Under the pieces are notes generated by a model. It had not been told where the DNA came from. It saw only the letters and a list, made by a program, of their open reading frames with translations, and did not search any database. From an uncultured Nitrososphaeraceae archaeon (lineage in GTDB: Archaea; Thermoproteota; Nitrososphaeria; Nitrososphaerales; Nitrososphaeraceae), in the NCBI GenBank assembly GCA_963729045.1, contig CAVSMN010000018.1, positions 1 to 64,000 of the forward strand: a stretch of 64,000 bases of DNA, given 5' to 3'. Both the position numbers and the translations under genes were made by a program. Of the stretch, positions 979 through 54,223 are shown piece after piece. The stretch's first letter is position 1. Each line of letters opens with the position of its first letter.

Positions 979-3618
979 CTAACTTCCACCTACAGATACA
1001 GGTGATTGTGACGCTAGTGTCGGTTGTGTTGCTGTTGCTGTTATAGCACCCTGTCTGAGAGCAGCGTCCATATTTACTTTGTTGTCTGCACTAAGTTGAA
1101 CATTCTCTCCGCCTAGATTCATTAGAAGTAATGCATTGACATTGCACCACCGAGATTCACAGGATTTCCACTCACAAGATCTAAACCTGTAGATTGTTCG
1201 GTCAGGTCTATAAAATATTGTGCTTGACCTGGAGCAGTAGAAGCTATTCTCTGTATTGGGACTATTGCGGATTGTGTTGTTTGTCCATCTTGTATTTTAG
1301 CTCCTACAAGTTGAATTCCTTTTTCGTCTGGTAAATTGAGTAAGACTTTCCCACTAGTAAGAATACATGGATCAAATGCTGCAAGTATTCGTGCTTTCCC
1401 ATTTTCCATTGGGGAGGGACCCAAGACAGTAGTTGCGGACTGTGGGGCACAATCTGCAGTGGGTGTTACTGCTCCGTCAAGTGTTCGTACTGTCAATCCT
1501 CCATCATTTCTCACAGTGACTTGATCATTGTTAATATTTGTTTTAGTAACTAGAACCGTCTTTGTAGTTGTAGCTGGTGTTGTAGTTGTAGCTGGTGTTG
1601 TAGTTGTAGCTGGTGTTGTAGTTGTAGCTGGTGCTGTAGATGTAGCTGGTGTTGTAGTTGGTGTTGTTGTAGCTGTACGCTGTGTGTTATCTGTAGTTGT
1701 CATCTGTTATCAGAAATACACTTGGAACCGCTAGGAGCATTCGACCCTGTCTTTCCACCAAACCCTACGATATGAGATCCTGCTGGACATGTTCCATCTG
1801 TATTTTTAGATACTTCTACTTCGGTACGGTGTAGTTGGTGTTTAGTTACATTCGGGACTGTGAGTAATTGTACGTTAAACAATCAGACTGGAATCAGTGG
1901 GCGTTGTAGTTGTAGCTGGTGTTGTAGTTTTGGCCGGCGTAGTTGTTTTCGCTGATGAGTTATCAGAAATGCACTTTAGAACCACTAGGAGTATCTTTCT
2001 GCAAAATCTTTACCATATGAAATCTTTTTGAACATTTTCTATCAGATCTTAGTAGGTAATTCTACTTGTAATGTGGTGTTATAGTGTTTCGGCTATTTGA
2101 AATGCTGTACAGATCTAGTACCTGGATTGACCTGTCCTTTCCACCAAACCCTACGATATGAGATCCTGCTGGACATGTTCCATCTGTATTTTTAGATACT
2201 TCTACTTCGGTCGGTTAGTTGAAGTTTTATTACAATCGGAACAGGTGTATGAAATAATTGTCGACAGAGGCGTTGTAGTTGTAGCTGGTGTTGTAGTTTG
2301 CGCTAGTGTCGCTGATGGTTATCAGAAATGCACTTAGAACCGCTAGGAGTAGCGGTATTAGAACAAACACTACGATATGAGATCCTGCTGAACATGTTTC
2401 ATCTGAATTTTTAGTTACTTCATCGTTTTGGCTTGTGTTTGGCTAGATGGGTTATCAGTTACACATTTAGAACCGCTAGGAGCACGACCTGTCTTTCCAC
2501 CAAACCCTACGATATGAGATCCTGCTGGACATGATCCATCTGTATTTTTAGGTACTTCTACTATCTTTTGGTGTTGTTGACGTTGTTGGTCCCCCTGGTA
2601 ATGTAGTTGTAGATTGGGTAGTACCTGGACCGACACATACACCTACGCTTGTTTCAGCAGTTCCAGTTGGACATTTTCCGTCAAGTCCTTTAGGAAAAGT
2701 TTGTGGTTCTCCTGTAGATATGTGCCACCTGTTTGCCCTGTGGTGTATAGGTCTGTTTTACTGGTGTTGCAGTTGTATCTGTAGTTGTTGATGATTTACA
2801 AGCGGGATCGGTGGGATTAGATTGGCAAATAGGATTATATAACAGGGAAAAGTGATTTGTTTCCTTTTGAGTTCGTATAATGGCAGTGGGGCTCAGTTAT
2901 TGTACGTAGTTGATGATTTACAAACATGGAGCTCGGGAGATCAGTCGTCTGATAACTGTGAGTGTCATGTTTACCTGGATCTGATTAGTTGTACCTGGAG
3001 CCGTCATGTTGTACCTGGGGTTGTTGTTGTACCACTAGTTGTCGATGATTTACAAAATGGAGCATCAGGAGAAGTCGTACAAATATTATTCTTACGGATC
3101 CGGAATCTCCAGGGATGGAACCAGATGGTGCTCCTGTTGTTGTACCTGGCGTTGTTGATGATTTACAAGCGGGATCGGTGGGATTAGATTGGCAAGGATC
3201 GGTATAGAAATAATCTCCCCACAGAACATTTGGTAATTTCTGATGGTGATGGTGATGGTGTTGTAGTCTGTACCTGTCCCTGTACCACATTCTTCCGTTG
3301 TAGCTGCCTGACTACCATTGGGACAATTTACAAGTTCGGGTTCAGTTTCTGGCTCAGTTTCTTCTTCTGGTACTCCAGGCTCTGACTCTACTTCTGGCTG
3401 TTCATTTTCTGATGAGCCATCATCTCCATCTGAACTACTCTCCATCTGAACTACTCTCCATCTGAACTACTACCTCCATCTGAACTACTACCTCCATCTG
3501 AACTACCTCCATCTGAACTAGCAAAGATATTAGATGACATTATCATGGCTGGGTTAGCAGATAGCATCATGGCTAATGTCAAAACTATAGTGAAACTAAC
3601 CGCAACATTTGGATTCAT
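979..3618 (-). pseudogene. Large secreted Thr/Pro/Ser-rich, Cys-repeat surface protein with many frameshifts
   Basis: ATG at 3618 with a signal peptide (MNPNVAVSFTIVLTLAMML), then SSDGG repeats, an EPE tract, DPCQSNPTDPACKS repeats, KNTDGTCPAGSHIVGFGG repeats, TTTPA repeats and a C-terminal domain ending at TAG 979. Joins several ORF-track fragments. Confidence 0.7.
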
Positions 3619-4812: not shown

Positions 4813-4891
4813 TAATTCTAAAACTGCTAGAATATTAGAGTATTGCACCTAGTTAGCAATCCCAATATATTTTTTCCATAGTATTAAAGAT
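4813..4891 (+). promoter_or_regulatory. Conserved 79-bp upstream element of the N/Q-rich protein genes, copy 1
   Basis: Near-identical to 23902-23980, 41738-41816 and 53883-53961. Confidence 0.8.
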
Positions 4892-5340
4892 ATGAATAAA
4901 ACAAAAAATATTCACAACAAAAACAAACTCATTGTCGCATCAATCGCAATAGTAGTAGCATTAGCTCTTTTCGCAAGTCCCATTGTGACCATGGATGATG
5001 CTTTTGCAACTAAAAAGAAAAAGGTAACCAGGCTCACCAATCAATAAATCAATCACAAGCCTCAGTTCAAAATGCCTTGTGTGCTTCTGGTGGAACAACT
5101 TTTCTGTCATGCAATAACGTAAACTCCCAAAACCAAAAGAACAGTGGAAACAATGCATTAGCACAAGACGATGACGATGACGATAACGGTGGAAACTTTG
5201 CAGAACAAAGCATCAGCCAATCACAATCCTCTGAACAAAATAGCCAGGTAGTATCTGGTGGAGACACAATAGGCTCTGGTAACAACATTAACGTTCAAAA
5301 CCAAGAAAACTCTGGCAGCAACGCAGCAGCACAGAGCTAA
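4892..5340 (+). pseudogene. Secreted N/Q/S-rich repeat protein, copy 1 (1-bp deletion in an A-rich run)
   Basis: Collinear with 23981-24433; frame is lost at about 5012-5022 (AAAAAGAAAAAGG). Confidence 0.85.
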
Positions 5341-5545
5341 ACGTAATTTTTTATATTTTTATTCCTTCTTCCAGTTTATTTAATGATTAAACAATTTATC
5401 AGTAATTGCATTTTAGAGCCCTACTTCCATTAGGAACTTTTTACAAAGTTGTGATCTTTTGGTTTGTCATTTTACACATAATTAAAAATAGGATAACGTG
5501 GCCTTATTTGATGCTTTTATATTTATGATTGATATTTAGAGGAGC

Positions 5546-6524: not shown

Positions 6525-6873
6525 ATGTCCGACAAGTAATTGAGTTTAGCAGACGGAATGGAATGAGTAAATTATAAACGTATACGAAAACATGCAAACC
6601 CGTTGTGAGTAAATCAAGGTTATCCATTTCACAGTGGTGCATAAAGCCTTGCATCTTTGTTCTTATAATTATATAAGCGATGTTTTCTAACTCATTGTAT
6701 GTGCTGTGATTACGAAATACCACTAGAAGAAGAAGAACAGGAAAAAACGATAGAAAAAGAAAAGAAAATAATCCAACCACACTTAGAAATCAGAAAGACA
6801 GAAGAAGAACCCATAGCAGCCTAAATTTTTTCTGTTTTTATGTATATGATGCGATAATACATTAGCATTATGC

Positions 6874-6912
6874 TATAGAACCTAACTACCACTGGGAACT
6901 TAATCCCAACCA
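6874..6912 (+). repeat. Array site 5 (A, R1-like; degenerate)
   Basis: TATAGAACCTAACTACCACTGGGAACTTAATCCCAACCA-ATGAGGACTG. Confidence 0.8.
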
Positions 6913-9828: not shown

Positions 9829-10215
9829 TTACAATTGTCTGTCAAATTCTCCGGTTATTACTTTTGAATCAGGGGAAAGAAGCCTTGTCCATTCTTCATA
9901 ACCTTGTTGACATTCCTTATCGTTCGACATTTTTGCACAAAGTTCATCTCTATGTTTCTTATCTTTATACGACATAATGGTTATCCATACATCTTCATCT
10001 GTACTAGCTGAAACTGATTTAGAAATGTTTTCGAATCCTTCCCAACTAGTATTTACTGCAAGTCGAAATAACTCATAATGTATTTCCTCTTTATCAAACA
10101 TTTCAGATGACTTTTTTTCAAGTGCTGTTAATGCTTCGTAATTCCTTTTTGGTGATCGTGCGATCATGAATTCTGAATAACTATAGTTCTTGTTATTACC
10201 TTGTTGATTATTCAT
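9829..10215 (-). CDS. DUF1428-like dimeric alpha/beta barrel protein
   Basis: Paralog of 26478-26879; YKDKKHRD...ITGEF pattern. Confidence 0.65.
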   Translation of the reverse strand: MNNQQGNNKNYSYSEFMIARSPKRNYEALTALEKKSSEMFDKEEIHYELFRLAVNTSWEGFENISKSVSASTDEDVWITIMSYKDKKHRDELCAKMSNDKECQQGYEEWTRLLSPDSKVITGEFDRQL

Positions 10216-10294
10216 ATATGCTTCAAAATTACTCTAGATTGAATAAATAAAAAGGATAACTCCCCAAGGGGAGGTTTATTAATAAGGAAAAAAG

Positions 10295-10630
10295 TTGTTA
10301 ATTAATCTGCCAAAACCAAAGCGAAATAAAATGGAATTATATTATGATATACTCAAAGGTATTTTAGATGAGCTAGTTGACAATGAGAGTGGTTATGGTA
10401 ATAGTAAAGTAAAACCTACACGAGTACAACTTAGGAGCAATCTTGCATACGATAAACTTGCCAAGTATCTTAATGAATTAGAGAGCAATAAGATGATAAT
10501 AAAGGATCCACTTCAAATAACTCCAAAAGGAAGAGATTTTTTAAAGGATTTTGACCGAATTGCTTCCTTTTTGATAGAAATGGGTATAAGATACTTTGAT
10601 TCATCGAAAGTAGTGGGGTTGAGAAATTAA
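10295..10630 (+). CDS. Winged-helix transcriptional regulator (archaeal type)
   Basis: KRNKMELYYDIL...PTRVQLRSNLAY...ITPKG. Confidence 0.8.
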   Translation: MLINLPKPKRNKMELYYDILKGILDELVDNESGYGNSKVKPTRVQLRSNLAYDKLAKYLNELESNKMIIKDPLQITPKGRDFLKDFDRIASFLIEMGIRYFDSSKVVGLRN

Positions 10631-10632
10631 CA

Positions 10633-11253
10633 ATGGATATGCATGATGATAACGATGGTGAAATTTATCACCCACTGACATTTGTTGACCAATTAGAAAA
10701 AAACAAACATATAGTGTTATTATATGATGACCAAAAATATGCCTTTTGGATAATAGCTAGGTATTTTTTAAATGGTCTTAATAAGGGTGAATCATGTATT
10801 TTCTTTACTTCAGATAATCCAGATGAAATTGAAAATAGATTAAACAAGGAAGGTATTGATGTAAGATATTATAAAAATAATAACTTGTTACGTATCTATA
10901 CCATTGAAAGATCGGATGATAATAAACGGGATACTTTAAGCGTGCTTAAGCATATAAGAAAAGATGCCACCATAGGAATGAAGCCCCCATTTAGATTTGC
11001 AGGAAGAACAATAACAGATACAGAAACAAAGGAAGGAATGAAACTTGGCATTGTTTTGGAAGAAGTTGGGCATGAAAATTTTGACAGTTTTAATAATTCA
11101 CAAATGTGTTTTTATGATATCTCTAAAATAGAAAAATCGATGAGACCAAGATGGATCCACGATCTTTTGAAAGCTCATCACTGTGTTATCTACGCATCAG
11201 AACCTAATAAAGCAGTAGCATTTGATACTAATCTACTTGAGGATGAAGATTAA
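10633..11253 (+). CDS. MEDS-domain sensory protein
   Basis: HIVLLY...YFLNGLNKGESCIF...CFYD...HHCVI. Confidence 0.75.
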   Translation: MDMHDDNDGEIYHPLTFVDQLEKNKHIVLLYDDQKYAFWIIARYFLNGLNKGESCIFFTSDNPDEIENRLNKEGIDVRYYKNNNLLRIYTIERSDDNKRDTLSVLKHIRKDATIGMKPPFRFAGRTITDTETKEGMKLGIVLEEVGHENFDSFNNSQMCFYDISKIEKSMRPRWIHDLLKAHHCVIYASEPNKAVAFDTNLLEDED

Positions 11254-11495
11254 TGAGAAAATATAGGACTGAAGTACCACAGTCAAAACCTTTTTTGAAT
11301 TCTTTATTGGATAAAATTGAATAAGTTTTCTATAAAATATTATTTTTGTATTTGTCCCGTCGAGTATTGCCAGAGTTCAAATCCCTATGCCGTTGATGTG
11401 AGAAAAAGACAATACAAAAACTAAAAGACATAGACCTTAAATAATCTAACCAGTAGTTTTCAAAAAGCTTAAATCATTTATCCTCATACTGGCGC

Positions 11496-11546
11496 TTAGA
11501 ATCCCATTTAAAATAAAAATACCGATATCGGCACTAATCCATACGG
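11496..11546 (+). repeat. Array site 7 (B with a 6-bp duplication, R2)
   Basis: TTAGAATCCCATTTAAAATAAAAATACCGATATCGGCACTAATCCATACGG-CCCCGCAATAAATTTGA. Confidence 0.85.
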
Positions 11547-11935
11547 CCCCGCAATAAATTTGAAAATTTTTGGATTCAATCTAAAAAATTTGATGAGATC
11601 TATAAGCAAAATATAAGCAAAATATAAAAAACCTTGTTTATCTGATCCCATTCACCCGATAAGAAGAAAGAAATAAGAATCATCCTCTATATTATCGCTC
11701 AAAACATATATACTCAGAATATTAAGTAGACCAGATTATTTGTATGAATCATCACCTTGATTTAGAATTTTTTAATCGGTCACCATAACAATACAAATTC
11801 AACATATGTAACAGATAAAATATGAAATAACATCTGAGTCATAATAAGTAGCAGTAAGAAACATTTCAATACAGGAAAAAACAAGGACAGAATTAATATC
11901 TTTATTAGGCATCTGCAAAAACATATGATTATGAT

Positions 11936-12508
11936 TTGTTCTTAGAAAATAGAAAACAAAAAAAAGAAAAGGTCATAGAACTCTACCTAGAGGGTAAAAC
12001 AGTAAGGGAGATTGCAAAAATCGTCCACATGTCGTTTAGTGATATTGGCGAAATCGTAAAAGAATATAACGAGCTAAAAACAAGGGAGAGCCTCAAGGGG
12101 GATACAATCATATCTGATGAAACCAAAGCGATTGAGCTTTTTTCTAAAGGGAAAAGACCAATTGAAGTAAAGATAGCCTTGAACATTAGTACTGAAGAAG
12201 TAGAGATATACTACAAGGCTTATTGGAAATTAGTAGGACTACATCAACTATATAAATACTATGAAACTGGGATAAAAAATGATCTACCTTCTTTTCTAAA
12301 GTTATATAGTAAAGCAAAAGAACTAGGAATATCAAATGACGATGTTATTAGAGCGTTAAAATATTTAAATGACATTCCATTTTTGGGAATAAGGTTTAAA
12401 CAACTAGAAAATAAAATCAAGAATTTGACCATTAGAAAAGAACATCTTATTTCCGAATTAGATGAACTGGAATTTAGCATAAATAAATTTAAAAATTCAT
12501 TTGAATAA
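11936..12508 (+). CDS. Double-HTH / coiled-coil protein, probably element-associated
   Basis: KVIELYLEGKTVREIAKIVHMSFSDI HTH, second HTH-like segment, C-terminal coiled coil. Confidence 0.7.
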   Translation: MFLENRKQKKEKVIELYLEGKTVREIAKIVHMSFSDIGEIVKEYNELKTRESLKGDTIISDETKAIELFSKGKRPIEVKIALNISTEEVEIYYKAYWKLVGLHQLYKYYETGIKNDLPSFLKLYSKAKELGISNDDVIRALKYLNDIPFLGIRFKQLENKIKNLTIRKEHLISELDELEFSINKFKNSFE

Positions 12509-12544
12509 ATCTAAAAAGAAGCAATACAAGTTATCCATTAAATC

Positions 12545-12835
12545 AAAATAAAAGGAAAAATTAAGAAAAGACACCAATTTCAGGCTGTTCATTCATTGCG
12601 TAAATGGTTCAAAACTCGAGCTGAAAACGGTGGAATGAAACCAATTAATGTGGAGATTTTGCTTTGTCTCAGCCTGGGAATAAGTTCGTCCTATTACCGC
12701 CTTACAGAAACAGATTTACTTGAAGACTATTGGAAAGTTTTAGATCAGTTGACATTTGATAAACAAGAAAAAATGGAAAGGGAATTGCAGAGAAATCATG
12801 AAGAAATTCAAGAAGAAGAACCCATAGCAGCCTAA
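12545..12835 (+). pseudogene. Tyrosine recombinase/integrase C-terminal fragment
   Basis: KRHQFQAVHSLRKWFKTRAE...INVEILLCLSLGISSSYYR contains the HxxR box and the catalytic-Tyr region. The GH motif is decayed and the N-terminus is absent. Confidence 0.8.
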
Positions 12836-12891
12836 TTTTTGAATTTTTTTTTATTTTGATGTGTAGATTGGCTAATACAAAGTAAAATTAC

Positions 12892-12929
12892 ATAGAACCC
12901 TACTATCACAAGGAACTTAATTCCCACGC
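12892..12929 (+). repeat. Array site 8 (A, R3)
   Basis: ATAGAACCCTACTATCACAAGGAACTTAATTCCCACGC-GCCCAAACT. Confidence 0.9.
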
Positions 12930-13172
12930 GCCCAAACTAGTCGTTCTGTATCGACATATTGAATTGCGTTATCTGTAAAAACATTGCAAATTGAATCACA
13001 TCTGACTCACCTGATACCAACCATTTTTGAATTGGTGATGTTTTCAAGAGTTCAATCAGGATTATACACTTTCATAACTCCATCCATATGGGTGTTTACT
13101 AACTTAGGGTCATTTGTTTGATAATCTGCAAGAACTTGTTTTTATATATTAGAAAAGATAAATGTATTGTTT

Positions 13173-15496: not shown

Positions 15497-15530
15497 GGAT
15501 TCTATTCAACCTTGAATCGTATCCCTACGG
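15497..15530 (+). repeat. Array site 10 (C, R1)
   Basis: GGATTCTATTCAACCTTGAATCGTATCCCTACGG-ATGAGAACTGTT. Confidence 0.9.
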
Positions 15531-23901: not shown

Positions 23902-23980
23902 TAATTCTAAAACTGCTAGAATATTAGAGTATTGCACCTAGTTAGCAATCTCAATATATTTTTTCTATAGTATCAAAGGT
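23902..23980 (+). promoter_or_regulatory. Conserved upstream element, copy 2
   Basis: Near-identical to the other three copies. Confidence 0.8.
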
Positions 23981-24433
23981 ATGAATAAAACAAATATTCA
24001 CAACCAAAACAAAAACAGCAAACTCTTTGTTGCATCAATTGCAATAGTAGTAGCATTAGCTCTTTTCGCAAGTCCCATAGTGGCTATGGATGACGCCTTT
24101 GCAACTAAGAAGAAAAAAGGTAACCAGGCTCAACAATCAATAGATCAATCACAATCCTCAGTGCAAAACGCCTTATGTGCTTCTGGTGGAACTACATTTC
24201 TATCATGTAACAATGTTAGCTTCCAAAATCAAAAGAACAGTGGAAACAACGCATTAGCACAAGATGATGATGATGGAAACGGTGGAAACTCTGCAGACCA
24301 AAGCATCAGCCAATCTCAATCCTCCAGCCAAAACAGCCAAGTAGTATCAGGTGCAGATACAATAGGTTCTGGTAACAACATCAACGTTCAAAACCAAGAA
24401 AACTCTGGTAGCAACGCATTAGCACAGAGTTAA
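23981..24433 (+). CDS. Secreted N/Q/S-rich repeat protein, copy 2
   Basis: Signal peptide plus two imperfect repeats A.QSI.QSQSS.QN...SG..T..S.NN...QNQ.NSG.NALAQ. Confidence 0.9.
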   Translation: MNKTNIHNQNKNSKLFVASIAIVVALALFASPIVAMDDAFATKKKKGNQAQQSIDQSQSSVQNALCASGGTTFLSCNNVSFQNQKNSGNNALAQDDDDGNGGNSADQSISQSQSSSQNSQVVSGADTIGSGNNINVQNQENSGSNALAQS

Positions 24434-24563
24434 ACTCAACTCTTTTTCTTTTTTTATTCTACAATCTTGCAAATATAATCAACATTATGATCAAAATATA
24501 TAGTAACCCATCATATTAGTCAAATCAACAAGTATTTATACACACAAAATAAGATAAATCTGT

Positions 24564-41284: not shown

Positions 41285-41737
41285 CTACTGCTGAGCAGCT
41301 GCGTTGCTTCCTGTATTTTCTTGACTTTGGACGTTGATGTTGTTACCAGAACCTATTGTATCTGCACCTGATACTACTTGGCTGTTTTGGCTGGAGGATT
41401 GAGATTGGCTGATGCTTTGTTCTGCAGAGTTTCCACCCTGTCCACCTTGTGCTAATGCGTTGTTTCCACTGTTCTTTTGGTGTTGGAAACTAAGGTTGTT
41501 GCATGAGAGAAAGGTTGTTCCACCTGATACACATCCAGCATTTTGGTTTGATGATTGTGATTGGTCTATGGACTGTTTTGCTTTATTTTTCTTGTTGTGT
41601 GTGGCTAAAGCATCATCTACATTGAGCATTGGACTGACAAATAGGGTTAATGCTACCACTATTGCAATTGATGCGACAAAGATTTTGCTGTTTTTGTTTT
41701 TGTTTTTGTTTTGGTTGTGAATATTTGTTTTATTCAT
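41285..41737 (-). CDS. Secreted N/Q/S-rich repeat protein, copy 3
   Basis: Paralog of 23981-24433. Confidence 0.9.
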   Translation of the reverse strand: MNKTNIHNQNKNKNKNSKIFVASIAIVVALTLFVSPMLNVDDALATHNKKNKAKQSIDQSQSSNQNAGCVSGGTTFLSCNNLSFQHQKNSGNNALAQGGQGGNSAEQSISQSQSSSQNSQVVSGADTIGSGNNINVQSQENTGSNAAAQQ

Positions 41738-41816
41738 ACCTTTGATACTATGGAAAAAATATATTGGGATTGCTAACTAGGTGCAATACTCTAATATTCT
41801 AGCAGTTTTAGAATTA
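41738..41816 (-). promoter_or_regulatory. Conserved upstream element, copy 3
   Basis: Near-identical to the other copies. Confidence 0.8.
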
Positions 41817-42948: not shown

Positions 42949-44826
42949 TCAGGCAGCTTTAAAACTATTTTTTGATTTACTTTTATTTTTTATATGGAAT
43001 TGATTTTGGTATGTAGCCTCAATTTTTTCTAATCCATCAATGTCTTTTAGTTCTTTGTCATATCTGATATTTTTTATTCTAGGAAAACGTAAAGCATATC
43101 CACTGCTGTGTCGATCGCTTTTTTGAACGGTATCAAAAGAAACCTCTAGAACAATTTCAGGTCTTACAATAATCTGGCTACCTTCATCTCTTATTATAAT
43201 TGACCTCAATTTCTCGGTCATATAATCAATCTCTTTATTGGATAGACCCGAATATGCCTTACCGATTATTTTCAGATCACCAAAAACATTATTCCCATTT
43301 TCCGATGCTAATTTGTTGTCGACAAAATTAGTGGTGTAATCTTTTACTGCCAAAGTATAATCTGAGAGTGTTCCTGCTCGTTTTCCATGACCATATTCAG
43401 CAATTACTACAACCGCATCAATCGTATCTAACTCCTCCTTCAATTTTATCCAATATTTTCCTCTTTTACCAGGATAATACTGCGATAAAGGATCTTTAAA
43501 GACCAAGCCCTCATGCCCTTCATTTCTACTTTTTCGAAATCTATTGGTTATTTCATCTACAGATGAAACTAACTTGCTTTGAGCAATAGAAATAATAGAG
43601 TCTTTAAACTGAAAATTTGCCAATAATCTCTTTCTAGATTCAAGAGTATCTTTGATTACCTGTCTTTGATCATAGAGCATTACATCATATACAATATAAC
43701 AAACTGGTATTTCAGATAAAATGGAGTTTGTCATGCTTTTTCTTCTCAACCGTTTTTGTAGTTCTTGAAATGGTAATGGTCTATCATTTTTGAAAGCTAT
43801 TAGTTCACCATCCAAAATGAAATTTATATCGTCACGATCGATATCACTGACATCACTTTTATCAGAAAGGATATTATGCTTTTTTTGACTTGTTTTTACT
43901 TTTTTTCTTCGTACATCCAACGCAGAATTAGTTAATTCTGGAAATGCATATGAAATATCAGCAAGATTGCGAGAGTAGAGTTTGCAAACCTTCCCGAATT
44001 TGTGCAATTGTACTCTGATACCATCATATTTGTATTCACAAAGAAGGGGCCTATCAAAATATTTGACAATCTCTTCTGCAGTAAACATGACATCAGCCAA
44101 CATGAAACTCATAGGAACAAATGGTTTAATCGTTACTAAGTTCAATTTATCTCTTTTCGACAATAAAGCTACATTTGCAATATCACCGGACATCAGCATT
44201 GCTTCCCGAATACTTTCAATATTTTTTTCAAATGCTTTTGCAATGGCTATTTCTATAAGGCCATCATAGGAACCTATCCGCATTTCATTTGATATTATTT
44301 TTACAAGGTACTTAGCCTCCAAAGGTGAGCATCTCAAAAGTAATCCTTTTAAGATATTTTTTTTGTCGTTGTTAGACCGTGGACCTCTAAGATTTGCTAT
44401 TCTTTTAAACTGATCATATATTTCCTTTAAGGTTGGTTTTTCTTCCAGAGTTTCTACGATATTGAAAAGTGTTACTATCTTTTTTTTAGAAATTGCATAC
44501 TCGGCTATGGTTCCCATATCGCCGTGTTCTAAATGAATTCGCATAACATCTGTCTTATCTAATCTAGAGATTTCTAACAGAGACTGTAGTATTGTTCTAA
44601 ACCCTACATTTAGATTATGAATTGATCCCCTTGGGAAAATCTTTCCAGACAAAAATAGAACTGCAATAGGTAGAGAATCTTCATCCAAGCCTGAAATATA
44701 TTGTACGATTAAATCGACTTTTTTATTCTTGCTTGTCGTAATCCGTATGGATTCACATGTCTCAACCAAGGTAGAAAAATAAGATACCTTGTGGCGAATA
44801 TCATCTGTCAAGTCAATCCCACTCAA
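42949..44826 (-). CDS. lig: ATP-dependent DNA ligase
   Basis: EYKYDG, LDGE, EGLVFK, WIKLK and LRFPRI..IR.DK motifs. Confidence 0.95.
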   Translation of the reverse strand: MSGIDLTDDIRHKVSYFSTLVETCESIRITTSKNKKVDLIVQYISGLDEDSLPIAVLFLSGKIFPRGSIHNLNVGFRTILQSLLEISRLDKTDVMRIHLEHGDMGTIAEYAISKKKIVTLFNIVETLEEKPTLKEIYDQFKRIANLRGPRSNNDKKNILKGLLLRCSPLEAKYLVKIISNEMRIGSYDGLIEIAIAKAFEKNIESIREAMLMSGDIANVALLSKRDKLNLVTIKPFVPMSFMLADVMFTAEEIVKYFDRPLLCEYKYDGIRVQLHKFGKVCKLYSRNLADISYAFPELTNSALDVRRKKVKTSQKKHNILSDKSDVSDIDRDDINFILDGELIAFKNDRPLPFQELQKRLRRKSMTNSILSEIPVCYIVYDVMLYDQRQVIKDTLESRKRLLANFQFKDSIISIAQSKLVSSVDEITNRFRKSRNEGHEGLVFKDPLSQYYPGKRGKYWIKLKEELDTIDAVVVIAEYGHGKRAGTLSDYTLAVKDYTTNFVDNKLASENGNNVFGDLKIIGKAYSGLSNKEIDYMTEKLRSIIIRDEGSQIIVRPEIVLEVSFDTVQKSDRHSSGYALRFPRIKNIRYDKELKDIDGLEKIEATYQNQFHIKNKSKSKNSFKAA

Positions 44827-45368
44827 TCAAATGTATGGTTAGATAATTTTACCCCAATATTAGGTATTGTGAGAACATTTCAAGATAATATTGTTCAAAA
44901 ATATAAAGATATAATTATAAATAAAGAAATTATTTACTTTGGACATTCAATTCATAAGTTTTCATTGTTTCAAGATGCTCAATTCAGCAGGGACCGTTGA
45001 ATTTTAGAATTGGAATATGTCATATGACCAGGTAAATCTTTGGTACAAATATTCCCTTCTTCATGTTGTTTTTTATATTGCGATTATTATTCTTCAGGTT
45101 AAATCTATTCCACCATATTTAGTATGTCTCTAAAACTATTATGCTTCATATTTTTGACATATTCTTATTAAATCCAACTTGCTGTGAATTATTGTATGAT
45201 GACTGACTAAGTTCAGGGACAAGCGATTGACAGTCAACAATACGTCCAAATAATTTATTCTACTTGTATGTATTGATAATTTTTTTCTTATATCGTATTA
45301 TGTTTATTAAATCTAGATTCCATCCTGATCATTTTAAAATACCTTTCATTAATATCACACAGCATAAC

Positions 45369-46229
45369 ATGAATAACAATAATCAAGATAATGAAAGCAT
45401 ATCAAAGTCGGGAGAAAGGGTAGCAGTAATAACAGGTTCGAGTAAGGGAATAGGCAGGGCTATTGCCTTAAATTTTGCAAAATCGAAGGATTATTCATCT
45501 ATAGTAATTAATTCAAGAAGTATAGATGAAGCTGAACTAGTAGTACAAGAAATAAAAAAAACCACTAAATGTGATTCAATTGCTATCCCAGGAGACGTTG
45601 CACAAGAGAAAGACTGTATAAGATTGATTGATGACACAGTAGATAAATTTCAAAGATTGGATGTATTAGTTAATAATGCAGGAATTCAAAAAGAAATTCC
45701 ACTGACTGAAACAACTCTTCAGGATTGGTATAACATTATATCAGTAGATCTTACTGGTCCTTTCATCTGCAGCAGAGAAGCAGTTAAACAAATGAAGGTA
45801 CAAAATAATCCTCGCGGCGGATGTATAATTAACATATCTTCTGTTCACCAGATTATTCCAAGACCCCATTATGTACCATATGCAACCGCAAAAGGTGGAA
45901 TCGATATGATGACAAAAACCATGGCACTAGAGTTGGCTACCGAAAACATACGAGTAAACATTGTCGCACCAGGTGCGATAGACACGGATATGAATATTAA
46001 TTTACGTACTGATGCTCAGGAACGTGAAAACACCTTAAGAAAAATACCCATGGGTAGAATAGGAAAGGACGAAGAAGTAGCAAACGTGGTGGAATTTCTT
46101 GCATCCAATAAGGCTAGCTACATAACTGGAAGCACTGTGATAGTTGATGGAGGAATGACCCTGTACCCCTCGTTTTCTCTTGATTACGATCATAATTCCA
46201 CTCATATTTTTCCAAAAGGTTCAATGTGA
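45369..46229 (+). CDS. SDR oxidoreductase, glucose 1-dehydrogenase-like
   Basis: TGSSKGIG, NNAG, SSVH, YATAK and VDGGMTLYPSF; the start was chosen at MNNNN. Confidence 0.85.
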   Translation: MNNNNQDNESISKSGERVAVITGSSKGIGRAIALNFAKSKDYSSIVINSRSIDEAELVVQEIKKTTKCDSIAIPGDVAQEKDCIRLIDDTVDKFQRLDVLVNNAGIQKEIPLTETTLQDWYNIISVDLTGPFICSREAVKQMKVQNNPRGGCIINISSVHQIIPRPHYVPYATAKGGIDMMTKTMALELATENIRVNIVAPGAIDTDMNINLRTDAQERENTLRKIPMGRIGKDEEVANVVEFLASNKASYITGSTVIVDGGMTLYPSFSLDYDHNSTHIFPKGSM

Positions 46230-53429: not shown

Positions 53430-53882
53430 TTATCCTTGTGCTAATGCGTTGCTTCCTGTATTTTCTTGACTTTGGACGTTGATGTTGTTACCAGAACCTA
53501 TTGTATCTGCACCTGATACTACTTGGCTGTTTTGGCTGGAGGATTGAGATTGGCTGATGCTTTGTTCTGCAGAGTTTCCACCCTGTCCACCTTGTGCTAA
53601 TGCGTTGTTTCCACTGTTCTTTTGGTGTTGGAAACTAAGGTTGTTGCATGAGAGAAAGGTTGTTCCACCTGATACACATCCAGCATTTTGGTTTGATGAT
53701 TGTGATTGGTCTATGGACTGTTTTGCTTTATTTTTCTTGTTGTGTGTGGCTAAAGCATCATCTACATTGAGCATTGGACTGACAAATAGGGTTAATGCTA
53801 CCACTATTGCAATTGATGCGACAAAGATTTTGCTGTTTTTGTTTTTGTTTTTGTTTTGGTTGTGAATATTTGTTTTATTCAT
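53430..53882 (-). CDS. Secreted N/Q/S-rich repeat protein, copy 4
   Basis: Same protein as copy 3 except the last residues (ALAQG versus AAAQQ). Confidence 0.9.
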   Translation of the reverse strand: MNKTNIHNQNKNKNKNSKIFVASIAIVVALTLFVSPMLNVDDALATHNKKNKAKQSIDQSQSSNQNAGCVSGGTTFLSCNNLSFQHQKNSGNNALAQGGQGGNSAEQSISQSQSSSQNSQVVSGADTIGSGNNINVQSQENTGSNALAQG

Positions 53883-53961
53883 ACCTTTGATACTATGGAA
53901 AAAATATATTGGGATTGCTAACTAGGTGCAATACTCTAATATTCTAGCAGTTTTAGAATTA
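53883..53961 (-). promoter_or_regulatory. Conserved upstream element, copy 4
   Basis: Identical by eye to 41738-41816. Confidence 0.8.
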
Positions 53962-54223
53962 GACTGAAAAGAACAACTCCTAATAGGCAAATAATGAACA
54001 AAATTTTTTACAATTGCGGACAATTATCTAATCTTAGATTGACAGATTATCGTCAAACAATTTTTATTATGCGTTTTTTCGCCACTCAAATTAATGAATT
54101 ATACCATATTTGGATTGTTCCATTTGATGACATTGATATATTATACAACGCATGGTTTGACTAAATCGCGTAATTCTTAGTTCTACCAAAACTTTTAAGA
54201 AGCATCATATCTCAAAAATAAAC

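Follow-up and report, generated by a model that had tools for sequence, protein, structure and literature searches.

A probable deletion scar of a tyrosine integrase in an uncultured Nitrososphaeraceae archaeon and the cassette arrays at tRNA-Lys(UUU) of its relatives

Tandem accretion of integrative elements at tRNA genes is familiar from integrative and conjugative elements (ICEs) and cis-mobilisable elements (CIMEs), and integrons are made up of the integrase IntI, an attI site and attC cassettes. We analysed a window of 64,000 nucleotides, positions 1 to 64,000 (forward strand) of contig CAVSMN010000018.1 of an uncultured Nitrososphaeraceae archaeon (GenBank assembly GCA_963729045.1). The window carries a series of repeated sites (types A, B and C) that share a 9-bp core, and in the cassette between sites 7 and 8 a piece of a tyrosine integrase gene lies between a gene with two helix-turn-helix (HTH) repeats and a type-A site. 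Compared genomes are denoted by G-numbers; G000 is the present one (22 contigs, 87% complete), with the window on its contig C18. The integrase piece is probably a deletion scar, a dead and internally derived remnant whose family integrates elements at the 3' ends of tRNA genes, its own lineage at tRNA-Lys(UUU). In relatives of the candidate genus Nitrosocosmicus, the same sites form long cassette arrays.

The additive flexible genomic islands of Alteromonas, as described in passages of PMC3698932, resemble these arrays in being serial same-orientation insertions at one tRNA 3' end, with repeated att scars framing cassettes most of which lack an integrase, and with the integrase at the head or decayed. 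The arrays here differ in their archaeal host, in their size (at least 44 sites over more than 150 kb), in the 9-bp shared block, in four conserved left arms (A–D) that are not tRNA sequence and in internal right arms that almost never would restore the tRNA; the last of these suggests that cassettes inserted at internal sites and not at the tRNA itself. Additive tRNA islands are already known; new are the archaeal scale and the internal junctions that would not restore the tRNA. Integrons, in passages of the same paper, share with the arrays small, mostly single-gene, integrase-less cassettes in one orientation, an order that is shuffled while orientation is kept and a tyrosine recombinase at the head, the last in only some of our genomes. 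Unlike integrons, the arrays are anchored at a tRNA gene and not at attI, their cassette genes run in both directions, and their sites are conserved in sequence (arm plus 9-bp core) rather than folded attC hairpins. With the XerA/integron-integrase model of NCBIfam, the family integrase scores 37.3 bits against a cut-off of 220, which does not place it with IntI.

Thaumarchaeal integrases have short att sites (median 17 bp), with 39 integrations in tRNA genes, according to parts of Krupovic et al. 2019 (PMC6563490); like the family here, they are tRNA-targeting tyrosine recombinases whose gene stays whole after integration. Those parts describe tandem pairs, cite arrays in other organisms and hold no arrays of tens of sites, and the main text of the paper does not mention Nitrosocosmicus. 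Passages of Nitrosocosmicus genome papers mention only integrases and islands, and the literature searched, supplements aside, gave no description of these arrays in that genus. SSV-type integrases (PMC7253208) are likewise archaeal, tRNA-targeting tyrosine recombinases with fragments at element ends; the family here does not belong to them, having its att core outside the open reading frame (ORF) and full-length integrated copies. Archaeal XerA (PDB 5HXY, 4A8E) is both the best sequence-profile match in the PDB (E 5.5e-5) and the best fold match (E 3e-8), at 17–19% identity. A long C-terminal helix (residues 350–409 of the model) sets the family apart from XerA, as do genes that stand beside tRNAs on mobile elements in many copies per genome.

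The translation of window 12512–12838 contains KKRHQFQAVHSLRKWFKTRAENGGMKPINVEILLCLSLGISSSYYRLTETDLLEDY. It keeps HSLR as the HxxR motif and the tyrosine of SYY, and these histidine, arginine and tyrosine residues align with invariant columns of the family (H293, R296 and Y327; R169 and H319 are conserved at 90% or more). The catalytic histidine H319 is leucine in the remnant (LLCLSLG vs LLCHSVG). The part bearing Arg I and the lysine is wholly absent, the gene being cut at both ends, so that the active-site set of tyrosine recombinases (Arg, (Lys), HxxR, His/Trp, Tyr) is incomplete; the remnant is a family member by descent and no possible enzyme. The family profile recovers it at E 2e-39 (profile positions 266–365 of 410), and tblastn finds paralogues in the same genome at C12:876-1139 (59% identity, E 5e-29), C12:402065-402319 and C14:115741-115932; the frame C12:401228-402415 has SSGIRVGA, HGFRKYYKT, LIGH and SYYKPTE. 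Its best match in the genus is a 392-aa frame on G004:C12 (76% aa identity, E 1e-40), which has LLCHSVGISSAYYRPTE at the place of window LLCLSLGISSSYYRLTE, and the two group together with support 0.992 in the family tree (FastTree, 21 rows), to which the remnant supplies only about 90 columns. At the nucleotide level, homology with the G004 gene is confined to 12602–12816 (gene nt 793–1007 of 1176, 85%). The last eight or so codons and the stop of the frame (EEEPIAA*) belong to a conserved A-arm unit and not to the integrase, and 54 nt separate the stop of the remnant ORF from the type-A arm copy. The original prediction, made from the sequence of the window, had read a decayed C-terminal tyrosine recombinase fragment before a type-A site. 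The decayed recombinase is borne out by the paralogues, the G004 match and the profile, and the tblastn search that it proposed did find copies in the genome and in the genus; the C-terminus is not, as the piece is internal and ends in the A-arm unit.

The core ATCCCCACG of the A, B and C sites is the 3' end of tRNA-Lys(UUU), at the junction of T-loop, T-stem and acceptor. A genome-wide listing places the 10-mer also within ...CTGGGGTTCGAATCCCCACGGGCCCGC on contig C9, where ARAGORN calls tRNA-Lys(UUU) at c[2999-3091], terminating in ...GGGGTTCGAATCCCCACGGGCCCGC; on the window itself, ARAGORN finds no tRNA. When up to one mismatch is allowed, the window holds 13 copies of AATCCCCACG, where 2.0 are expected, and 0 of 100 shuffles reach this count. 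All sites of the three window families lie on the + strand between 0.7 and 34 kb, are intergenic and end in (A)ATCCCCACG; a fourth left-arm type with the same core, D, is found in G015, G024 and G041. The claim that the core by the remnant is a genuine att core has stood, since it equals the tRNA-Lys(UUU) junction. The A-arm pattern recurs in 22 of 24 other genus genomes and is absent from all 16 genomes that represent other families of the order. When the genome collection was scanned for an exact 17-mer, 93 stretches were returned; among the 80 listed, 71 are labelled Nitrosocosmicus, Nitrososphaeraceae or Nitrososphaerales, one is labelled Nitrosopumilus and eight are single bacterial matches. 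Palindromes stand 8–15 nt upstream of the core in three of the four left-arm types (B, CCGATATCGG; C, ATTCAAccTTGAAT; D, CAAATTTG), and the B arm has a TATA-like TTTAAAATA about 25–30 nt upstream of the core. Dimeric accessory proteins may bind at these elements, or an outward promoter may lie there.

Table 1. Coordinates of the integrase remnant, the repeated sites, related loci and arrays (window positions unless a genome or contig is named; C contigs are those of G000)
Feature	Position	Strand	Remarks
Internal tyrosine integrase remnant	12569-12816	+	~250 bp, ~codons 283-370 of ~400-codon gene
Stop-to-stop frame with remnant	12542-12832	+	97 codons; stops 12539-41, 12833-35; reads IKIKGKIKKRHQFQAVHSLRKWFKTRAENGGMKPINVEILLCLSLGISSSYYRLTETDLLEDYWKVLDQLTFDKQEKMERELQRNHEEIQEEEPIAA
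Listed ORF of remnant	TTG start 12596	+	79 aa; ORF list
Site 7, type-B left arm	11502-11545	+	with TTTAAAATA and palindrome CCGATATCGG; repeat family D6, arm alignment
Degenerate core of site 7	11536-11545	+	AATCCATACG
Right (P') arm of cassette 7-8	11546-11580	+	GCCCCGCAATAAATTTGAAAA; tRNA-acceptor-like, 'tRNA-restoring' type
Double-HTH ORF	11936-12508	+	intact, 190 aa; two HTH repeats and C-terminal coiled-coil-like tail
Extended type-A arm unit	12811-12918	+	includes 3' end of unrelated gene (..EEEPIAA*), the stop of the remnant frame
Type-A arm copy	12890-12943	+	54-nt repeat, family D3
Core of site 8	12919-12928	+	AATTCCCACG, one mismatch to AATCCCCACG
Right (P') arm of next cassette	12929-12950	+	CGCCCAAACTAGTCG; common non-tRNA-restoring type
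Type-A sites	759, 6144, 6873, 8141, 12890, 16189, 23730, 30451; also 25265	+	
Type-B sites	4638, 11502, 14419, 22371, 30917, 32033	+	
Type-C sites	6494, 15498, 19296, 32991, 33722	+	
Arm palindromes, examples	11522-11531 (B), 15503-15520 (C)		
Family locus	C12:401297-402439		near full-length, stop in tail
Family locus	C12:77-1160		frameshifted
Family locus	C14:114848-116019		in pieces, adjoins tRNA-Lys(CUU)
Family loci	C12:72244-73430, C21, C10		decayed
N-terminal stub	C9:2759-2908	-	~50 N-terminal codons (WSLYLYAMKSPVTRQKYIGRIDKFFDFLDLEGTTPEEKS), adjoining tRNA-Lys(UUU) with its flank
G012 array	tRNA c[1175527-1175618]		sites down to 1120740
G015 array	tRNA 514164-514255		sites to at least 669232
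G041 array	tRNA c[339073-339165]		sites down to 188400
G024:C1 sites	1 to 97 kb		

Relatives of the remnant occur in 26 of 33 other genus genomes, many as open frames of 390–460 aa. Of the 21 full-length homologues examined, 16 have a tRNA gene or 3' end immediately upstream and read away from it (10 tRNAs called by ARAGORN, 5 intron-containing tRNAs read by eye and 1 partial tRNA 3' end); the tRNAs are Arg-GCG, Ala-GGC, Lys-UUU, Pro, Val and intron-containing ones. The other five comprise one on a tRNA-Lys flank at a contig end (G004), three that adjoin array sites (G020, G041 and G043) and one with neither. The arrangement of a tRNA 3'-end integrase, a gene adjoining a tRNA with the att core, is found in the homologues and has been lost by the window remnant. 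The superfamily membership of the remnant rests on its paralogues, on the predicted fold and on precomputed PF00589 matches of close relatives: proteins close to the G015 member are named site-specific integrase, most with such a match, and the G015 member itself has E 0.0037 with the PF00589 profile. The AlphaFold model of this member (pLDDT 82, pTM 0.59) gives 60 Foldseek matches in the PDB at E ≤0.001, those listed being the tyrosine recombinases XerA, Cre, XerH, VchIntIA, lambda Int and Tn1549 Int. The model of this full-length relative has the two-domain fold (core-binding and catalytic) of tyrosine recombinases.

The profile search of G000 gives 16 family matches at eight loci, the window piece and the C9 stub among them, all truncated, frameshifted or stopped, and those on C21 and C10 are of another lineage than the remnant. 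The earlier expectation that an active enzyme would have to be supplied from elsewhere agrees with this state of the 87%-complete genome. The C9 stub is 81% identical in nucleotide sequence to the G004 gene and the window piece 85%. With such similar identities, the two may have been one gene split by an insertion, but the middle 230 or so codons are missing. Another stub stands at tRNA-Lys(UUU) in G012 (G012:C1:1175274-1175438, - strand), and further N-terminal stubs were seen at G041:C1:1361150-1361305 and 2723761-2723904. The stubs recur at about 50–60 codons (profile 6–61), and those of G000 and G012, which have different flank types, break at nearly the same codon, which may reflect a preferred breakpoint or selection that preserves the stretch.

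The comparison of cassette 7-8 with its relatives indicates how the scar arose. In G002, G041, G014, G043, G024 and G012, homology to the preceding cassette (86–95%) breaks off within the site 7 core, at window position 11540. The G046 ortholog of cassette 7-8 matches from the core (11535) through the HTH gene and ends at 12568; there, an A arm and core are followed by GGCCCGCAATAAATTT (joined to a preceding ATCCCAACG), an HTH pseudogene, some 150 bp of sequence and a second A arm with core, and no integrase piece is present. On the other side, the 128-bp A-arm unit from 12811 (query block 2612–2739) has integrase-free copies in G044, G022, G004:C13, G046, G041 and window 6800–6910, which also have the coding end EEEPIAA*; homology blocks of the next cassette begin at 12944–12959. 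Short A/G-rich microhomology is present at both ends of the integrase piece. Both fusion junctions are spanned by contigs of other metagenome runs from two studies (X2 record 13, X3 record 22 and X1 record 4; all runs were used as assembled Logan contigs, in which rare circles or empty sites cannot be seen). Since the G046 cassette lacks the integrase piece and both ends have microhomology, module 7-8 is a chimera in which an HTH cassette is joined to what is left of an adjacent integrase element. It had been taken for the relic of one self-mobile element with its integrase next to attP; that view needs correction, as the adjacency of remnant and A arm was made by deletion and is no int-attP arrangement. 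The simplest history is that an integrase element adjoined the HTH cassette in the array and that two illegitimate deletions, whose order we infer, spared 250 bp of the gene.

In complete relatives, tRNA-Lys(UUU) heads one-orientation arrays of 13 to at least 44 sites that extend over 55 to more than 150 kb. Over seven stretches, 145 sites point array-wise and 2 in the opposite direction, whatever the direction of the flanking genes; the cassette genes point both ways and include those for dehydrogenases, hydrolases, methyltransferases and regulators. When window 1–36 kb is compared with the arrays of six relatives, 44 of 46 high-scoring segment pairs (HSPs) of at least 250 bp cross no core. 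Matching cassettes are scrambled in order, and in 41 of 46 cases the direction that they have within the array is retained (16 of 16 in G041, which is about 90% identical in the ligase region). The left- and right-arm types of 134 sites are not associated (chi-square p = 0.22), as expected if each side belongs to a different cassette joined at the core.

In the mechanism that we propose, working members of the family would cut and rejoin DNA within the core ATCCCCACG. Elements with an integrase would insert at the tRNA or at array-internal sites, and cassettes without one would probably be moved in trans, with one-orientation arrays downstream of tRNA-Lys(UUU) as the outcome. In G000, the enzyme gene would have been destroyed, with about 50 N-terminal codons left by the tRNA on C9, and two microhomology-mediated deletions would have fused the HTH cassette to the neighbouring integrase element and the A-arm unit, producing the 250-bp piece. 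We further suggest, tentatively and at somewhat less than even chances, that the arrays are an archaeal integron-like gene-capture platform. The head integrase would excise small integrase-less cassettes, each with one of the four left arms and a right arm that leaves the tRNA unrestored, and re-insert them at internal cores in trans, shuffling accessory metabolic genes between species; the remnant would then be the fossil of the enzyme and the window array frozen.

Pure serial accretion and decay, with each module a shrunken autonomous integrase element that entered at the tRNA and with no movement in trans, is the strongest competitor, although we think it rather unlikely. Integrase relics do lie inside arrays (in the window and in G041, at 278785-279024 and 211071-211184), full-length integrase elements stand at heads or inside arrays in G015, G041 and G020, stubs persist at the tRNA, and tyrosine-recombinase elements are described, in passages of Krupovic et al. 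2019 (PMC6563490), as building arrays through repeated use of a single site. Entry at the tRNA, however, should leave a right arm that starts with GGCCCG and completes the acceptor stem. Such tRNA-restoring arms are found at all three tRNA heads, and also at the heads in G000:C9 and G016, but among 142 internal sites a single one has such an arm, in the HTH cassette as found in G046. Different species share the common right arm, CGCCCAAACT, which would bring a mismatch into the acceptor stem, so that such cassettes probably entered at internal sites and not at the tRNA. As judged from these sequences, the internal right arms argue for cassette movement beyond plain stacking. Accretion also fits poorly with a median site spacing of 2.0 kb, often a single gene, with left arms conserved in 22 of 24 genus genomes and with scrambled order at kept orientation.

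Candidate joints at cores in metagenome contigs (for example 4671->8170) were not counted as excision events; their sides are short (about 31 nt) and perhaps come from paralogous sites of other strains. Cassette 6-7 (window 10200–11540) is 86–87% identical to its G012 and G024 counterparts, while the DNA-ligase/short-chain dehydrogenase/reductase (SDR) region (42949–46229) reaches only 68–77%, a contrast that hints at cassette exchange between species, although genes differ in the strength of their conservation. On the contig of the window, A- and B-type sites of opposite orientation occur at G000:C18:78000-139000, which may be a second array or an inverted segment; to the right of the site at 137126 stands GGGCCCACTTCATAACTGAAT, the flank found after the tRNA of G012.

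A further question is whether this family, or some other recombinase, acts on the sites. The family is the best candidate for the enzyme at the core, a view supported by its association with arrays in five relatives and by the stub in G000. In G015, a 417-aa family ORF begins 18 nt after tRNA-Lys(UUU), and in G016 an integrase follows this tRNA. The G004 ortholog begins at a contig end on the flank GCAACGATATAGGTTCTTTTAAGTGGG, which follows tRNA-Lys(UUU) in G000:C9, and seven sites come after it. In G020, the order is A arm, core, GGGCCCGC and integrase. In G041, the first element behind the tRNA is 15 kb long and has the integrase at its distal end, and the genes of G041 and G043 adjoin inverted sites. 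That another recombinase, or none today, acts on the sites and that the position of the remnant is an accident of deletion is decidedly less probable. The adjacency is indeed deletion-made, the G046 cassette is free of the integrase piece, the arrays of G012 and G024 have no close intact family member at the head, and both genomes have PF00589-positive ORFs of about 510 aa away from the arrays. Against these stand the identity of the core with the tRNA-Lys(UUU) 3' end, the occurrence of the family at tRNA 3' ends in 16 of 21 homologues, and family genes or stubs adjoining tRNA-Lys(UUU) in G000, G012, G015 and G016 and its flank alone in G004, besides the G041 gene at the end of its first element.

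Several results count against our view of the scar and its family. Six of the 21 full-length homologues (G015, G016, G004, G020, G041 and G043) are tied to the tRNA-Lys core, and 14 stand at the complete gene of another tRNA; the candidate catalyst family of the original prediction is supported by association, although most of its members target other tRNAs. The array-linked integrases are split over three clades of the family tree. G012 (99% complete) has an array with only a stub at its head and distant family members elsewhere, and G024 (88% complete) has about 27 or more sites and one truncated family match. No intact family copy was found in G000, in an assembly of 22 contigs that is 87% complete. 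A match to Phage_integrase profiles had been set as a check, and on this point the prediction failed formally: searched alone against Pfam and NCBIfam, the remnant matches no family at E up to 1, and even the near-full-length G004 ortholog stays below the PF00589 cut-off (E 7e-5, 23.1 bits vs 27.1, positions 4–159 of 172). When the G004 ortholog (G004:C12, about 12170–12200) is compared with the G000:C9 stub, it also has a frameshift of one base at about codon 30, by which the gene may be inactive, or which may be an assembly error. Finally, no recombination and no excision product was observed in the assembled contigs of the runs, where rare circles and empty sites would go unseen.

Very little speaks for the sites being regulatory or structural intergenic repeats (promoter, terminator or repetitive extragenic palindromic (REP)-like) to which the scar is unrelated. 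All sites are intergenic, the B arm has its TATA-like element, and the B, C and D arms have palindromes, which such repeats would account for; they would not account for a single orientation whatever the direction of the flanking genes, a core identical to the tRNA 3' end with arrays anchored there in three complete genomes (G012, G015 and G041), breaks of synteny at the cores and arm sides that assort independently. The weakest alternative, that an SSV-type 'suicidal' integrase broke in two on integrating and left the C9 stub and the window piece as its halves, would suit an N-terminal stub by a tRNA and a C-terminal-side piece by another site of the same genome, and such splitting is described (PMC7253208), but it is hardly credible given the roughly 230 codons missing between the pieces, junctions of the window piece that are microhomology joins and not att cores, integrated family genes that are whole with the core outside the ORF in the upstream tRNA, and reading directions that would not fit an ORF spanning attP.

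The double-HTH gene that had been placed upstream of the recombinase fragment is present as an intact ORF. Two similar HTH repeats can be read directly in its sequence; HTH_28 is matched at E 9.8e-6, and there is a weak match to the three-HTH Cbp1 model over residues 8–144. The family has expanded within the genus: 29 of 33 other genus genomes have matches, up to 17 in one genome, and many copies of this double-HTH and coiled-coil family are pseudogenes. A truncated IS630/IS1 transposase was considered and rejected, since the longer members (327–342 aa) extend into coiled-coil-like sequence with no transposase-like domain by eye. A fixed partnership with the integrase is not supported; no HTH match was found in the G041 stretch 170–345 kb (part of the array and the head element) or in the G020 stretch around its element.

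Other repeats were noted in the window. At 11366–11393, CAGAGTTCAAATCCCTATGCCGTTGA resembles the 3' end of tRNA-Arg(GCG) (GAGGGTTCAAATCCCTCTGGACCCGA on C12) and may be the att scar of an Arg-targeting element inside cassette 6-7. A gene of about 150 aa occurs four times (4813–5360, 23902–24453, 41285–41816 and 53430–53969), two copies being inverted and outside the array; the pair 41300–41599 and 53445–53744 is 100% identical over 300 nt, and the gene is also multi-copy in the arrays of relatives. The first 3.5 kb is richer in G+C and contains, at 1526–1957 and 2255–3267, tandem repeats whose period is 18 nt (GTTGTAGTTGTAGCTGGT) as well as repeats of 97 nt; their probable source is a - strand gene for a repetitive protein.

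Taken alone, the scar is ordinary, and it matters as a way into the surrounding repeat system. Through it, the core is recognised as the tRNA-Lys(UUU) end, and an enzyme family is named that has intact array-head genes in cultivated relatives. As the arrays break assemblies at every site, metagenome-assembled genomes (MAGs) of the genus under-represent them. If the family does move integrase-less cassettes, soil ammonia-oxidising archaea would own a platform of 50–150 kb for trading accessory metabolic genes. The idea of the additive island and of the integron would then be carried into the archaea, and this would help to explain the large and variable genomes of the genus.

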